Positions 1-4,788 of a DNA stretch of 4,788 nt are shown one piece after another. Made by a program: the position numbers and the translations under genes. The stretch comes from a virus (lineage: Duplodnaviria > Heunggongvirae > Uroviricota > Caudoviricetes). The DNA is taken from positions 1 to 4,788 of the IMG/VR virus record IMGVR_UViG_2537561727_000003; one strand, given 5' to 3'. Below the pieces are notes generated by a model, which saw nothing but the letters and a program-made list of their open reading frames with translations, had not been told where the DNA came from and did no database searches. The first letter of the stretch is position 1, and each line of letters opens with the position of its first letter.

Positions 1-25
1 GCATCCCCCTGAATAAAAACCGGAG

Positions 26-439
26 ATGATGCCAGTTGCCCGTTATCTCTGCATTTTCATAAACGTTGGTTTGGGAGAAGCGGCAAAACGGGATGTGGGG
101 ACAGGGGAAAATCAGATACCGGACATGGCCTCTTTTGCCAGTGGTGATGGATGGATGAAATTACCCAACGGGAAAATCCTGCAATATGGTCGTGGTGCGG
201 TTACGCCGACATTATCGACGCAAACAATGAGAATTACATTCAGCATCCCTTTTCCTAAAAAAGTGGACTGCGCCATGCTTACTCATTCTGGTGATGGTGG
301 TGCGCCTTTAGGTGCTGGGCGAGGGTTCATGATGACTGCAGAAGGCCCAACATTAACCGGTTTTAATTCCGCTTACAGAACTGCATCAACCAGTTCCACA
401 GTATCGATGAATTACAGTTGGTGGGCTGTTGGTGAGTAA
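26..439 (+). CDS. Silent alternative tail-fibre C-terminal cassette (variable receptor-binding domain), expressed only after inversion
   Basis: Open frame from the ORF track (137 aa). The crossover site at 54-79 lies inside its 5' end, and codons 71-79 (GGA GAA = GE, preceded by GLG) are identical in frame to the GLGE codons of the minus-strand tail-fibre gene at the other site. Only 68-439 (about 119 aa, AAKRDVGTGENQ...WWAVGE) would be joined to the constant N-terminus after inversion. The ATG at 26 has a GGAG only 1 nt upstream (poor spacing), so independent expression is doubtful. A cognate chaperone gene follows 20 nt downstream. Confidence 0.65.
   Translation: MMPVARYLCIFINVGLGEAAKRDVGTGENQIPDMASFASGDGWMKLPNGKILQYGRGAVTPTLSTQTMRITFSIPFPKKVDCAMLTHSGDGGAPLGAGRGFMMTAEGPTLTGFNSAYRTASTSSTVSMNYSWWAVGE
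54..79. repeat. Left crossover site for a Hin/Gin/Cin/Pin-family serine invertase (26 bp, imperfect dyad)
   Basis: TTTTCATAAACG TT GGTTTGGGAGAA. The inner half (68-79) is the exact reverse complement of the inner half of the right site (1960-1971), and the 15-bp core 66-80 is a perfect reverse complement of 1959-1973. The central TT is compatible with the AA of the right site in inverted orientation. Confidence 0.8.
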
Positions 440-459
440 TTTTATTCAGGGTGATTTAT

Positions 460-903
460 ATGAACGAATATGTTTATAGCGCAAGGCATAATGCTTTTTT
501 CCCTGTGGATATGATTGATAAATATAAATCAGAGGGATGGGATTTATCAGATGCAAAGGAGGTGAATCAAAATATTATCAGTGAGTTTATGGCTGAACCG
601 CCACAAGGAAAAATCAGTATTGCCGGAGATGATGGGATGCCTGCGTGGGCAGATATTCCTCCACCCACGCATGAAGAGCTTATTGAAATTACTGAATCAG
701 AAAGACAGCTACTAATTAACCAGGCCAACGAATACATGAACAGTAAGCAATGGCCCGGTAAAGCCGCTATTGGTCGTCTGAAAGATGACGAACTGGCGCA
801 ATATAATTTGTGGCTGGATTATCTGGACGCACTGGTGCTGGTCGATACTTCCGGTGCGCCAGATATTGAATGGCCTACGCCTCCGGCAGTTCAGGCCAGA
901 TGA
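460..903 (+). CDS. Tail-fibre assembly chaperone (Tfa family), partner of the silent cassette
   Basis: C-terminus ...LWLDYLDALVLVDTSGAPDIEWPTPPAVQAR is the conserved Tfa C-terminal signature seen in lambda/Mu/P2-type tail-fibre assembly proteins. ATG at 460 is preceded by AGGGTGA (446-452); the ORF track starts at GTG 451, which has a weaker RBS context. It sits directly downstream of the tail-fibre cassette, as for Mu U' / P2 G. Confidence 0.85.
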   Translation: MNEYVYSARHNAFFPVDMIDKYKSEGWDLSDAKEVNQNIISEFMAEPPQGKISIAGDDGMPAWADIPPPTHEELIEITESERQLLINQANEYMNSKQWPGKAAIGRLKDDELAQYNLWLDYLDALVLVDTSGAPDIEWPTPPAVQAR

Positions 904-1480
904 CATCCGGCGCGGTGCTGGTATCTGTTGCCGTCACCGCGTCAATGTAATCCAGCACAGCGTTAAGTCTGGTTGTTTCTGCCTGCGTCAACTTCCGTCC
1001 GGCCTGTAATTTCAGCTGAATCAGACTAATGGAAGCCATTGCTGCATCAATCAGTGACTGGCGCTGTGCTTCTGCCGCGTCTACTGCGGCACTATGCTGT
1101 GCCTCAGTATCCGTCACCCATTTCTCACCATCCCATTTATCATATGGCGTTAACGGGGCGATAGTGGTTGTATTTTCAGGGTAATCACCCGGAGCTGTGA
1201 TTTCTTTCGATTCTCCTGTTTCGGTGCTATAGATGATTTCACCGCGATGGTCTGGCACATATTCCCATGAGTTAAAATCTGCAGAACGGCAGATTGCATA
1301 ACCAGCTTTATGTGTAACTGGTGCATCTAAACAAGAACATGCCGGGATACCGACGCCGACAGCGAGATATTCAGTTGATGTAGAAATATATTCACGCGTT
1401 TCACCATCATAATTATAAATGATAATGTCTCCCGCTTTTATGGCAATGAGTTCACTATTTAATACAGCTTTATTCATCAT
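875..1480 (-). CDS. Tail-fibre assembly chaperone (Tfa family), partner of the currently expressed tail-fibre variant
   Basis: 201 aa. C-terminus ...LNAVLDYIDAVTATDTSTAPDVIWPELPEA matches the Tfa C-terminal signature and the plus-strand Tfa. Its start ATG (1480-1478) overlaps the TGA stop (1479-1477) of the upstream tail-fibre gene (ATGA coupling). The AT-rich 5' half and GC-richer 3' half suggest a mosaic gene. Confidence 0.9.
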   Translation of the reverse strand: MMNKAVLNSELIAIKAGDIIIYNYDGETREYISTSTEYLAVGVGIPACSCLDAPVTHKAGYAICRSADFNSWEYVPDHRGEIIYSTETGESKEITAPGDYPENTTTIAPLTPYDKWDGEKWVTDTEAQHSAAVDAAEAQRQSLIDAAMASISLIQLKLQAGRKLTQAETTRLNAVLDYIDAVTATDTSTAPDVIWPELPEA

Positions 1481-2799
1481 GCAGCCCTCACAATATAATT
1501 AAAGGCGATGTTACGTGGACGATTTTCATTTGCTGTTGGAACAACATTTGCCGCCGAGAAGTGAACATCTTGTCGGATTTTTCGGTCATTAGCGTATGTC
1601 ATAGACACATTGATGTTATTCCGGACTGAGGTACCTCCGTAAAAAGCCCCACTCACACTTTGAACATCGACAATTGCATTAATTTCGCTGTTTACGCGCA
1701 ACTGACCAAAACCGCCAGTAATGTTTCGAATAGCATCTCCTTGCGATGAAAGCAGAGTTCGCCCACTATCCACACCACGTTCATCATCCCAGCCACGAAT
1801 AAACTCACCACGTAAATCAGGCAATTTATTGGTCGGGTAAGCCTTTGCCAGTTCCGGGTATTCTTCAGCAGAAAAAGCCGCACCATTGCATTTCAGCCAG
1901 CCTGTTGGCGGAGTGGCTGAAGGCCACGGAACAGGCACACCAACCGGTAATGCAGAGCCTTCTCCCAAACCAAGGTATGCGAGAAGACCAGCTACATCCT
2001 TTCCACTCAAATGAGTCAGCGTCTCATCCAGTGGCTGCTTACCTGACAGCGCATTGTTAATGGTGGTGCTGAATTTCGGGTCATTGTTAATGGCTGCGGC
2101 AATTTCTTTCAGTGTGTCCAGCGTGGCTGGCGCACCGTTAATCAGAGCGGTAATAGCGGCCTGAACAAACGCAGTGGTCGCAATCCGCGTGGTGTTATTT
2201 CCTGCGGCAGGCGTCGGCGCTTTTGGTTCTCCGGTAAATGTCGGATTATGTTTCTGCGCATACTGTGTATGAGGATCCTGTGCGGCAATGTGGTTTCTCA
2301 TCTGGTCATCCACATACAGCCTTAATTCCAGGACTTCATCATCCACGTATTTACGGGTCGCCAGTACCACCGACGGGTCGATTTTCAGCGTGATAGCTTC
2401 GGTATTCGTGACAACCAGAATCATGCGGATAGTCTGGGTACGACCACTGCCTTCCTGCAACTGCGGTTTGTACGTTTCCGGGCAGTTCGCCACCGCAATG
2501 AGTACGCCTTCATCATCATAAAGCCCAATCTCACGGATCCAGAATCCGCCCTCGTTCTCAGGGATGATTTGCTCCGCAATAATCTGGCTCTGGTTGTTCG
2601 GGTCAACACTCAGAAGATTCAGCGGCGCGATGCGTTTCTGGTTAATCAGTTTTGTCTGTGCCGGGTCTGGTGTCGGCAAGACACCATTCGCATCACCAAC
2701 GGCCATTTGCGTCAGATTCAGCTTACTGCCGAGCATCGTCGCGTTAGCCAGCCGTGCTGCGCCCTGATTAGTCAGAATGGCGTAGTATTTCACTGTCAT
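1477..2799 (-). CDS. Tail-fibre protein (P2 gpH / Mu S-like constant N-terminus fused to a variable C-terminal domain)
   Basis: 440 aa. N-terminus MTVKYYAILTNQGAARLANA...MAVGDANG resembles the N-terminus of P2 gpH-type tail fibres (from memory). The C-terminal part contains a tail-collar-like stretch (PVGVPVPWP...GWLKCNGAAFSAEEYPELAKAY). Start ATG 2799-2797 overlaps the stop of the upstream gpI-like gene. The crossover site at 1960-1985 lies in codons 273-281 (LLAYLGLGE), separating constant residues 1-280 from variable residues 281-440. Confidence 0.9.
   Translation of the reverse strand: MTVKYYAILTNQGAARLANATMLGSKLNLTQMAVGDANGVLPTPDPAQTKLINQKRIAPLNLLSVDPNNQSQIIAEQIIPENEGGFWIREIGLYDDEGVLIAVANCPETYKPQLQEGSGRTQTIRMILVVTNTEAITLKIDPSVVLATRKYVDDEVLELRLYVDDQMRNHIAAQDPHTQYAQKHNPTFTGEPKAPTPAAGNNTTRIATTAFVQAAITALINGAPATLDTLKEIAAAINNDPKFSTTINNALSGKQPLDETLTHLSGKDVAGLLAYLGLGEGSALPVGVPVPWPSATPPTGWLKCNGAAFSAEEYPELAKAYPTNKLPDLRGEFIRGWDDERGVDSGRTLLSSQGDAIRNITGGFGQLRVNSEINAIVDVQSVSGAFYGGTSVRNNINVSMTYANDRKIRQDVHFSAANVVPTANENRPRNIAFNYIVRAA
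1960..1985. repeat. Right crossover site for a Hin/Gin/Cin/Pin-family serine invertase (26 bp, imperfect dyad)
   Basis: TTCTCCCAAACC AA GGTATGCGAGAA. The half-sites are TTCTCCCAAACC and, in reverse complement, TTCTCGCATACC. This closely resembles the hixL sequence as I recall it (TTCTTGAAAACC AA GGTTTTTGATAA), about 20 of 26 positions. It lies inside the tail-fibre gene at the constant/variable boundary. Confidence 0.8.
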
Positions 2800-3407
2800 G
2801 CGTTTACTCTCAGGTTATCAATTAAATGAATGGCCGAGGCCGGGAAATAATCCCCTCCGACAATAATGGCCTCCGGGGTGTAGGGATAAACCGTCAGGGC
2901 GTCGCCGTGATAGCATCCCGCAACGGCAAAAATGTTGCCGGTTGTACTTAAACTGATAGCCAGTCCCGTCAGATGGCGGCTTGCCGGTTTTGCATCAGCA
3001 ACGAGGCGCTCCAGCTCCTGATACATTTCCTCGGTAATACCCTGCTCAAGCACGCCAACAACGATACGGAACGTCCCCGGCTCCTCGTTGAGTTGCCACC
3101 ACTCCCTCACCTCAATCAGATAGCCGAGCGGCTCCACCACACGGCGAATCGCACCAATAGTGCCCTTATGGCAGTGAATGAAATACGCATCGCGGATAAC
3201 AGCGCGTTTGGTCGCTTCCGGCCATTTATCATCCCACCTGTCGACCGAAAATGACCACGCCAGCCACGGCAGCAGATTTGCCGGACAGGTATCCGGGTTC
3301 CACAGCTCACGAATACTGACCGGCGTTTTTTCAATTTCCGCACAGGCTTTTGCGGCGGCGACTTCAAGCGGTGATGAGCCGGTCGGCAGCAGTCGCGAAT
3401 CACTCAT
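2796..3407 (-). CDS. Phage tail/baseplate protein, P2 gpI-like
   Basis: 203-aa ORF immediately upstream of the tail-fibre gene and downstream of the J-like gene, matching the P2 order J-I-H-G. A strong SD (GGAGG, reverse complement of about 3412-3416) precedes the ATG at 3407. The family assignment rests on position and recollection, not on a search. Confidence 0.8.
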   Translation of the reverse strand: MSDSRLLPTGSSPLEVAAAKACAEIEKTPVSIRELWNPDTCPANLLPWLAWSFSVDRWDDKWPEATKRAVIRDAYFIHCHKGTIGAIRRVVEPLGYLIEVREWWQLNEEPGTFRIVVGVLEQGITEEMYQELERLVADAKPASRHLTGLAISLSTTGNIFAVAGCYHGDALTVYPYTPEAIIVGGDYFPASAIHLIDNLRVNA

Positions 3408-4233
3408 CCGAGCCTCCGGTCACGACGCGGTATTCAGTACAGAAAGACGCCTGCGTATTGTTGAGCACGATGTCAGCCAGAGGTGCAGTCAGTTCGACAC
3501 GCTGCACGCCTTCCACATGCAAAGCGGCATAAATGGCAGACAGACGGATGTCGCGCCCCAGCCGGTGCTGTGCCGTGATATACGCTTCCAGTTTTTTCAC
3601 GGCGGCAGCGCGAATGGGTTCGCTTTCAGGACCAGGGTAAAGGTAAAGCGTGGCGTTTATCTGGTATTCAACGATGGCAGCAGACTGCACGGTCACACGA
3701 TCGGCCACCGGTCTGACGTCCTCGCCATTAAGGGCGTTACGCACCACGGCCAGCAGGTCTTCGGATGCGACACCGTTATTTTCACGTGACAGCACAGAGA
3801 TGGTGACGCAGGCCGGAGACGGACTGGTGACAGAGATATCCGCGACACGCCCGTCGGCACTGCGACCATGATACTGATAGGCTCCCACCGACCCGGCGAC
3901 GCTTAAGCCCTCAAACGCCTGCTGAATACGCAGACGATAATCGGTGTCAGACTCCATCACTGCCGGTGTCGGCGGGATAGTCGAATCATCTGCCGGGGTG
4001 ATAATCAGGCGCGTGGTGTTGTAATTGGCACCAATCACATCAAGGTCATTACCGGCGGCACAGGCCAGCATTACCGCCCGTGCGGCCTCATTCACACGCT
4101 GACGCCAGATAAGCTCACGATAAGCATTTTCCTCCAGCAGTTTGACGAGAGGCTCGGATTCCAGCGTCAGGGTACGGGCAACCGCCTCCTGCTGGTCTTC
4201 CGGGTATCCGCCGTGGCTGTCTGGAATATGACG
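3400..4233 (-). pseudogene. Baseplate assembly protein J-like, 5'-truncated (no start codon at the upstream end of the open frame)
   Basis: The minus-strand frame is open from a stop at 4236-4234 down to the TGA at 3402-3400 (277 codons). I translated 4233 to 4096 by hand and found no ATG, GTG or TTG; the first possible start is GTG at 4095, which is where the ORF track begins (231 aa). Baseplate J proteins of P2-like phages are about 300 aa, so the N-terminus appears to be lost at a deletion junction. A protein starting at GTG 4095 cannot be excluded. Confidence 0.6.
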
Positions 4234-4262
4234 TCAGCGCCACCGACATCACCAGCTCGTTT

Positions 4263-4439
4263 ATGGCTATCCGCAAGACCATGACCAGCAGCGGACGCAG
4301 CGCCACCTATGAGGCCAGCCGCAGCGAGGAAGCCAGCCACGCAGACCTCGCCTGGGCGACCATGCACGCCCTGTTAAATGAGCCACTCACCGCCGGTATC
4401 AGCACCCCGCTGACATCCACCATTCTGGAGTTTTACTGA
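4263..4439 (+). CDS. Short ORF or 3' remnant of an upstream packaging gene (by P2 synteny possibly the terminase large-subunit C-terminus), stop/start-overlapped with portal
   Basis: The plus frame is open from 4146 to the TGA at 4437-4439. The first ATG is at 4263 (MAIRKTMTSSGRSATYEASRSEEASHADLAWATMHALLNEPLTAGISTPLTSTILEFY, 58 aa), below the ORF track's apparent length cut-off. Its TGA shares the A at 4439 with the portal ATG (TGATG). There is no usable start at the 5' end of the open frame, so it may be a truncated remnant. Confidence 0.35.
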   Translation: MAIRKTMTSSGRSATYEASRSEEASHADLAWATMHALLNEPLTAGISTPLTSTILEFY

Positions 4440-4788
4440 TGAGCAAGAAAAAAGGGAAAACACCGCAACCTGCGGCAAAAAAAATGACTGCCAGCGCCCC
4501 GAAAATGGAGGCATTCACCTTTGGCGAGCCGGTGCCGGTACTCGACCGCCGTGACATTCTGGATTACGTCGAGTGCATCAGTAACGGCAGATGGTATGAG
4601 CCACCGGTCAGCTTTACCGGCCTGGCAAAAAGTCTGCGTGCTGCCGTGCATCACAGCTCGCCGATTTACGTCAAACGCAATATTCTGGCCTCGACATTTA
4701 TCCCGCATCCGTGGCTTTCCCAGCAGGATTTCAGCCGCTTTGTGCTGGATTTTCTGGTGTTCGGTAATGCGTTTCTGGAAAAGCGTTA
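4439..4788 (+). CDS. Phage portal protein (P2 gpQ-like), 5' part; continues beyond the window
   Basis: ATG at 4439 with GGAG about 10 nt upstream. Translation MSKKKGKTPQPAAKKMTASAPKMEAFTFGEPVPVLDRRDILDYVECISNGRWYEPPVSFTGLAKSLRAAVHHSSPIYVKRNILASTFIPHPWLSQQDFSRFVLDFLVFGNAFLEKR stays open to the window end and matches my recollection of P2-family portal N-termini. The ORF track does not list it because it has no stop inside the window. Confidence 0.8.
   Translation, partial: MSKKKGKTPQPAAKKMTASAPKMEAFTFGEPVPVLDRRDILDYVECISNGRWYEPPVSFTGLAKSLRAAVHHSSPIYVKRNILASTFIPHPWLSQQDFSRFVLDFLVFGNAFLEKR

Follow-up and report, generated by a model that had tools for sequence, protein, structure and literature searches.

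In phage Mu, the gene for the Gin invertase lies outside the invertible G segment, with its 5' end directed toward the silent-cassette side, and the segment, which is bounded by 26-bp crossover sites, carries two tail-fibre C-terminal cassettes together with two chaperones. The P segment of the E. coli K-12 prophage e14 is flipped by Pin, a serine invertase residing in a defective prophage that, likewise, exchanges tail-fibre cassettes. In the P1-type phage D6, the 3' end of the cin gene overlaps cixL, and hence the cin promoter is located away from the crossover site. The hin gene of Salmonella, which belongs to the H segment, differs from all of these in that it sits within its own segment, the inversion of which controls a promoter and does not swap C-termini. 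The closest counterparts in terms of the host element are the P2-like prophages of the E. coli strain EPEC E2348/69, for which sequencing and PCR have demonstrated that invertase-driven segments give rise to alternative fibre C-termini (Goldberg et al., PMC4272514); one of these loci contains three inverted repeats and yields four variants. Furthermore, the flipping of tail fibres in cryptic prophages has been reported to be capable of blocking the adsorption of phage T2 (PMC12529663).

The present analysis concerns the left edge of a 4,788-nucleotide stretch of DNA (hereafter, the window), which belongs to a known, widespread tail-fibre switch of the Mu G type carried by a P2-like prophage. 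Very probably, the explanation of this locus as a whole is that the gene for an invertase of the Gin/Pin/Hin family begins three bases past the left edge, on the minus strand, and that its product flips a tail-fibre segment. The layout is that of Mu: the constant 5' part of the tail-fibre gene H lies outside the segment, the opposed cassettes and their chaperones lie inside it, inversion produces an in-frame fusion, and the invertase gene is located at the silent side. The crossover sites are of like form in the two systems, and the distance from the invertase start to the crossover point is 67-69 nt in both (in Mu, the G boundary lies at 35025 and gin starts at 35092; here, the site core at 66-67 and the start at -2, in notional coordinates continued leftward beyond the window). 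Conservation extends to a TGGCAT(C/G)AT block and to the candidate Fis sites. The differences are that the element in the window is a P2-type prophage (J, I, H, then FI, FII), that gin starts with GTG rather than ATG, that the central dinucleotide is GA in Mu but AA here, and that the Mu cassettes are unrelated in sequence to those in the window, which are of the Collar and gp53-like types.

The D6 Cin protein is 77% identical to the invertase and belongs to the same Fis- and enhancer-dependent family; a phage invertase annotated as Fin (H76) shows 75% identity, Fin being the invertase of the Salmonella prophage Fels-2 (cited as reference 43 in PMC4272514). Some homologues (H139, H143) are named pinE by PGAP, and the resemblance to e14 extends to the serine invertase, the defective prophage and the flipped tail-fibre cassettes, although e14 is lambdoid whereas the element analyzed here is P2-like. 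The EPEC segments represent the same type of element with the same function, the window containing a simple two-site switch in contrast to the locus with three inverted repeats. The original prediction had taken it as a premise that, in Mu, P1 and e14 alike, the invertase adjoins the silent-cassette side and its promoter overlaps the crossover site. This layout does apply to Mu but cannot be extended to P1, given the opposite placement of cin in the P1-type D6.

An ATG that is four bases away from the edge of a window has no statistical weight by itself and acquires meaning only through the flanking DNA. By exact look-up of the silent-cassette protein (window 29-439), we matched the window to scaffold JH954133.1 (GCA_000304115.2), bases 1-4788 of which are identical to it, with 0 mismatches; the window begins at the scaffold end. 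Past the window, the scaffold continues with a gap of 10 Ns (4789-4798) and then with a second contig, the first 65 nt of which are the exact reverse complement of window positions 1-65 (L004 4789-4863, JH954133.1). Beyond this overlap, the second contig reads ...AGGGGG ATG CTC ATG CTT ATT GGC TAT GTA CGC GTG TCA... In the scaffold, the two contigs are oppositely oriented and joined across the gap, and we base the adjacency of the window and the invertase gene on the exact 65-nt overlap combined with three relatives: the rebuilt flank, from -700 to +100, is identical in three uninterrupted assemblies (L001, L002 and L003), the first of which, E. coli 65COLEC, shows 99.4% identity to the window across positions 1-4206. 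Because the window and invertase contigs truly meet head to head, the deposited scaffold contains the window contig in flipped orientation. The second contig stops at the base beside the central dinucleotide of the crossover site (65|66). A contig break at the crossover point along with a flipped contig would follow from the presence of mixed segment orientations in the sequenced culture.

Every annotation and gene call, PGAP included, places on the minus strand past the left edge a gene of 594 nt that encodes a protein of 197 aa, and the annotations show that it is followed by P2-type genes for the tail sheath, the tube, E, T, U, D and ogr. The invertase gene that was originally expected on the minus strand directly beyond the edge, adjoining the silent cassette, is accordingly present in the recovered flank, as a gene of the Gin type. 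The frame is open for 199 codons that include the 197-aa invertase as well as the ATG at 4-2, which is in frame; no stop, early or otherwise, follows this ATG before the recombinase sequence. The protein contains a Resolvase domain (PF00239, E = 8e-53) and a helix-turn-helix domain (HTH_7, PF02796, E = 1e-12), aligns with the Gin structure 3UJ3 over residues 1-182 (E = 1e-94), and is 80% identical to Mu Gin. The serine recombinase catalytic motif that was anticipated near the N-terminus is found there, with the catalytic Ser9 embedded in YVRVSTNDQ. In Hin, Gln151, Arg154 and Leu155, together with the basic residues 47, 48 and 51 of helix B, touch Fis and the enhancer, and these residues separate invertases from resolvases (McLean et al., PMC3798978). 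Their equivalents in the present protein are Q150, R153, L154, K46, K47 and R50 (Hin numbering minus 1, the offset being taken from the 1HCR alignment). The locus, then, combines a serine recombinase of approximately 190 aa, with an N-terminal resolvase domain and a C-terminal HTH, with inverted 26-bp sites and the Fis-contact residues, and the gene is an ordinary, already annotated DNA invertase of the known Gin/Pin kind. None of the NCBIfam models scores above the cutoff for this protein, which is why it bears the generic name 'recombinase family protein'.

Within the window, the strongest inverted repeat, 54-80 with 1959-1985 (repeat I1), encompasses the two crossover sites (Table 1). Both are 26 bp long, are inverted relative to each other, and consist of two imperfect 12-bp half-sites around an identical dinucleotide, the same form as in the Mu gix site TTCCTGTAAACCGAGGTTTTGGATAA. 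When the segment 66-1973, both central dinucleotides included, is inverted in silico, H becomes fused in frame to the silent cassette, resulting in a protein of 399 aa that is identical to the present H through residue 280 and then continues ...LGLGEAAKRDVGTGENQ... into a gp53-like C-terminus. In all likelihood, the 136-aa ORF annotated over the silent cassette is a cassette without a promoter of its own rather than an independent gene.

Table 1. Features of the invertase locus and the invertible tail-fibre segment; coordinates are those of the window unless indicated otherwise
Feature	Position	Strand	Basis
Invertase CDS	notional -2 to -595 (JH954133.1 4866-5459), outside the window	minus	recovered flank
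Last 4 nt of the invertase leader, including ATG 4-2	1..4	minus	sequence and frame
Shine-Dalgarno sequence AGGGGG, 6 nt upstream of the conserved ATG	5..10	minus	SD-like 4-mer in all distinct relatives
Block TGGCATCAT, candidate extended -10 or 5' arm of a leader hairpin	26..34	minus	conservation; putative function
Left, invertase-proximal 26-bp crossover site, TTCTCCCAAACC AA CGTTTATGAAAA; central dinucleotide 66-67	54..79	minus	inverted repeat
Invertible segment, 1,908 bp; two alternative tail-fibre C-terminal cassettes, each with a chaperone	66..1973		in-silico inversion
Silent C-terminal cassette of H (Gp53-like_C, PF21882), annotated as a 136-aa ORF from 29	68..439	plus	domain match
Assembly chaperone of the silent cassette	460..903	plus	Caudo_TAP, E = 4e-30
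Assembly chaperone of the currently expressed cassette	875..1477	minus	Caudo_TAP, E = 1.7e-32
Tail-fibre gene H, 440 aa; constant N-terminal part 1974-2799, fused variable cassette 1477-1971	1477..2799	minus	Phage_tail_fib and Collar domains
Right crossover site within H, TTCTCCCAAACC AA GGTATGCGAGAA; central dinucleotide 1972-1973	1960..1985	plus	inverted repeat

Two of the viral contigs depart from the common organization. In L043 (1107, 2927), the invertase-proximal site has GGTATGCGAGAA, the outer half-site of the H type, in place of CGTTTATGAAAA. The two sites of this contig thus match perfectly as inverted copies for 27 nt or more, possibly as a result of gene conversion or recombination. 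L046 (1618, 3001) contains two invertase gene starts with identical upstream regions, 1.4 kb apart, and the first copy is disrupted and includes an ambiguous base, suggestive of either a duplication or an assembly artefact.

As a rule, the Fis sites of invertase enhancers are 48 bp apart. A scan with the classical degenerate Fis motif, covering the initial 300 nt of the invertase gene, yielded one pair of motifs at exactly this spacing, centred at gene nt 30 (TGTCAACAAATGACC) and 78 (GCGCAGGATGCGAGC), which we treat as sites predicted at the motif level. The left crossover site has its centre 97.5 bp from the first of the predicted sites; the native enhancer-to-site spacing in Hin is about 99-100 bp (PMC3798978). 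Across 70 distinct genes, including Mu gin and D6 cin, the predicted Fis cores are near-invariant, and synonymous codon diversity is the lowest in codons 5-32, a combination that fits the presence of a DNA element embedded in the coding sequence. Under the mechanism that we envisage, the invertase would bind the site at 54-79 and its inverted partner at 1960-1985 in H, with Fis, bound to the predicted enhancer within the initial ~90 nt of the gene, probably driving inversion. Recombination would then flip the 1.9-kb segment (66-1973), and the flip would swap the C-terminal receptor-binding cassette of H along with its chaperone, as inversion of the G segment does in Mu.

The existence of both orientations in nature could be assessed directly from related sequences. 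Compared directly, the near-identical viral contigs L012 and L019 show 1,375 mismatches over 3,100 positions; in-silico inversion reduces these to 37, with breakpoints within a 14-nt stretch that is common to the two sites and comprises the central dinucleotide and the identical inner half-site. The set of cassettes found in the window is itself represented in both orientations relative to H and the invertase gene, one way in L031, L078 and L063, and the other way in L032, L044 and L084. Among complete E. coli genomes, the left junction of the window type is uninterrupted in 282, and the flipped junction is present in 802. The top match of the 'flipped' kind, the genome of NCTC9104, is truncated by IS1 and uninformative, and the L012/L019 pair was used instead. 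For E. coli P2-like prophages, invertase-driven variation has been shown experimentally by Goldberg et al. (PMC4272514). Inversion of the segment is a documented property of this family of elements and would be expected in the strain from which the window was derived.

The element is a P2-like prophage with an internal deletion that removed genes for the capsid, lysis and some of the baseplate. Homology to intact prophages ends at position 4206; past this point, the window covers the terminase gene P at its 3' end and then the beginning of the portal gene Q. The baseplate gene J lacks its first ~34 codons and is joined to the 3' end of P (window 4199-4262), with W, V, S, R, the lysis genes, L-O and most of P deleted. 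This J/P junction in one piece was found in 0 of 5,426 complete E. coli genomes. Over about 6-8 nt, the homology to J (through 4206) coincides with that to P (which sets in at about 4199-4201), and such a short overlap favours a real deletion over an assembly chimera. The degraded state of the prophage, which is without capsid and lysis genes and has an incomplete set of baseplate genes, with J truncated onto a terminase remnant near 4200-4206 at a junction shared by no complete E. coli genome, raises the question of whether the switch, its genes and sites intact, is a silent relic in this strain, in which inversion has stopped or has no consequence. We consider this unlikely: the invertase ORF is identical to the copy in intact prophages, both crossover sites and the in-frame fusion are preserved, and the contig break exactly at the crossover, coupled with the flipped contig, is what mixed orientations in the culture would be expected to leave behind. 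Moreover, defective prophages, e14 among them, retain invertases that continue to flip their segments (PMC4272514; PMC12529663).

For PinQ and StfE2 of e14, a block of adsorption directed against other phages has been reported (PMC12529663). By analogy, and given that the reduced prophage has retained an intact invertase, intact sites and both cassettes, the switch in the window might have been kept for the benefit of the host, for example, through a fibre-derived adsorption block, and the strictly conserved ATG just beyond the segment (26-31) might express the 'silent' cassette on its own; our estimate of the likelihood of this scenario is very low. The reading that we favour is a switch of the Mu G type that is probably operative.

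How such a switch would be controlled can be considered at the level of the invertase leader. Because both ends of the segment carry the 5' ends of cassettes that read away from the invertase, the promoter of the invertase gene should be located in, or next to, the 55 nt between the crossover site and the start codon. A scan for consensus sigma-70 promoters upstream of the invertase gene returned 0 matches at the threshold of the tool, and a literature search for invertase promoters found nothing relevant. The leader contains the sequence TGGCATCATC (minus strand, 34-25), which is invariant in 54 distinct relatives; the Mu leader reads TGGCATGAT. The first nine bases match the pattern of an extended -10 element (TGn followed by CATCAT), and with a 17-nt spacer, the -35 hexamer would be ATGCAG at 54-49, touching the outer half-site of the crossover site, in keeping with the promoter overlap originally proposed; such a position would permit autoregulation. 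Judging from the sequence, TGGCATCAT at 34-26 is most likely the extended -10 of the invertase promoter, and the overlap of this putative promoter with the crossover site is plausible.

Alternatively, the same block could form part of a leader hairpin, in which it would serve as the 5' arm and pair with the Shine-Dalgarno sequence and the start codon. A hairpin of this kind does fold in this element, but its stability is not significant (z = -1.4) and covariation is weak, with a double change in 2 of the 13 pairs and a covariation term of -0.67. Among the 'known' invertase leaders, those of D6 cin (L091 4440-4500) and Mu gin (L090 4030-4092) have stems covering the Shine-Dalgarno sequence or the start codon, with z = -3.5 and z = -2.9, respectively (0/200 shuffles fold as well). 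The stems in Mu and D6 suggest translational damping of invertase synthesis as a common theme. Within the window, 0 RNA families from Rfam were matched. The start of the 136-aa 'gp53-like domain-containing protein' (ATG 26 or 29) falls outside the invertible segment. ORF finders begin the silent cassette at this ATGATG, which is complementary to the invariant TGGCATCAT block. A similar situation is seen in Mu, where the start of Mup52, at 35053, is located beyond the G boundary at 35025 (L090 4026-4054).

The start codon of the invertase gene itself calls for a revision. Window positions 1-10 are GCATCCCCCT, and the minus strand from 10 to 1 is AGGGGGATGC (AGGGGG-ATG-C), so the ATG at 4-2 and the G-run at 9-5 that abuts it without a spacer can be read directly in the sequence, as the original prediction had it. 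That prediction put forward this ATG as the candidate start and regarded the G-run as a poor Shine-Dalgarno sequence. The ATG is, indeed, in frame, and relative to it, the G-run has no spacer; however, the probable start is the next ATG, two codons downstream, and relative to that conserved ATG, the G-run is well placed, 6 nt away. It is because of this 6-nt spacing that we assign the G-run as the Shine-Dalgarno sequence of the conserved ATG.

Several lines of comparative evidence converge on the downstream codon. The conserved start, ATG CTT ATT GGC (MLIGYVRVS), at the notional positions -2..-4 (scaffold 4866), is 6 nt downstream of the ATG at 4-2, and it is ATG in 78 of the 78 related viral-contig loci. 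The triplet 6 nt upstream of it is ATG in 46 of 76 related loci and in 13 of the 33 distinct upstream sequences, being replaced in the other relatives by TCT, TCC, TTG, TTT, ATA, ATT or CTT. Each of the 33 distinct upstream sequences has an SD-like 4-mer at a distance of 5-8 nt from the conserved ATG. In Mu, gin has its GTG at the homologous start codon, with no start codon or ATG at -6, and the alignments with Gin (Met1), gamma-delta resolvase and Sin all begin at the second Met. In addition, the arrangement TTTTATTCAGGG(G/T)GAT + 4 nt + ATG precedes both the invertase gene and the tfa/chaperone gene at 460 (repeat I2). From these sequence comparisons, we conclude that the real start of the invertase is most likely the ATG at -2..-4, six bases past the one initially proposed, and that the ATG at 4-2 is best regarded as a chance in-frame triplet within the spacer between the Shine-Dalgarno sequence and the start.

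Translation of the invertase from the ATG at 4-2, to yield a 199-aa protein beginning MLMLIGY..., is the obvious competing possibility, given that this codon is in frame with no stop in between and that ATG or TTG occupies the upstream position in 52 of the 76 related loci; the ATG at 4-2 may serve as a minor start. As the principal start, it appears very unlikely. The G-run abuts it, yet stands 6 nt from the next ATG; the upstream triplet is TCT, TCC, TTT, ATA, ATT or CTT in 24 of the 76 loci, whereas the downstream ATG is invariant; Mu gin lacks a start codon at the equivalent position, and it is with the second Met that the alignments to Gin, gamma-delta resolvase and Sin start; all gene callers chose the 197-aa form; and the tfa ATG at 460 is preceded by the same ribosome-binding block at the same 4-nt spacing. 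The ATG at -2..-4 is retained here as the start.

The window also contains a 16-nt inverted repeat, positions 3-18 and 440-455, that is 94% complementary, against an estimated chance expectation of about 0.13 for such 16-nt repeats in the window. It corresponds to near-identical ribosome-binding regions, TTTTATTCAGGGGGAT + 4 nt + ATG for the invertase and TTTTATTCAGGGTGAT + 4 nt + ATG for the chaperone at 460. This repeat may be a trace of an event in which the invertase gene became joined to the intergenic region between a fibre gene and a chaperone gene.

As a further alternative, the original prediction had envisaged a plus-strand gene that would end at the left edge, with no invertase start there at all; the three plus-strand stops on which this idea was built, TGA at 10-12, TAA at 14-16 and TGA at 27-29, do exist in the sequence, but in the recovered flank the three frames meet further stops at -2, -28 and -15, leaving ORFs of 0, 0 and 10 aa, the annotations show no plus-strand gene at the left edge, and a gene of this kind, with ORFs of at most 10 aa available to it, is refuted and has virtually no chance of being real.

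The value of these findings is mainly in correct annotation, considering that the invertase gene is already annotated in RefSeq and in thousands of E. coli genomes. The refinements that emerge are the position of the start codon, the role of the G-run as the Shine-Dalgarno sequence, the premise regarding P1, the status of the 136-aa ORF as a promoterless cassette, and the flipped contig in the deposited scaffold. In biological terms, the window represents one end of a standard tail-fibre host-range switch of the Mu G type.
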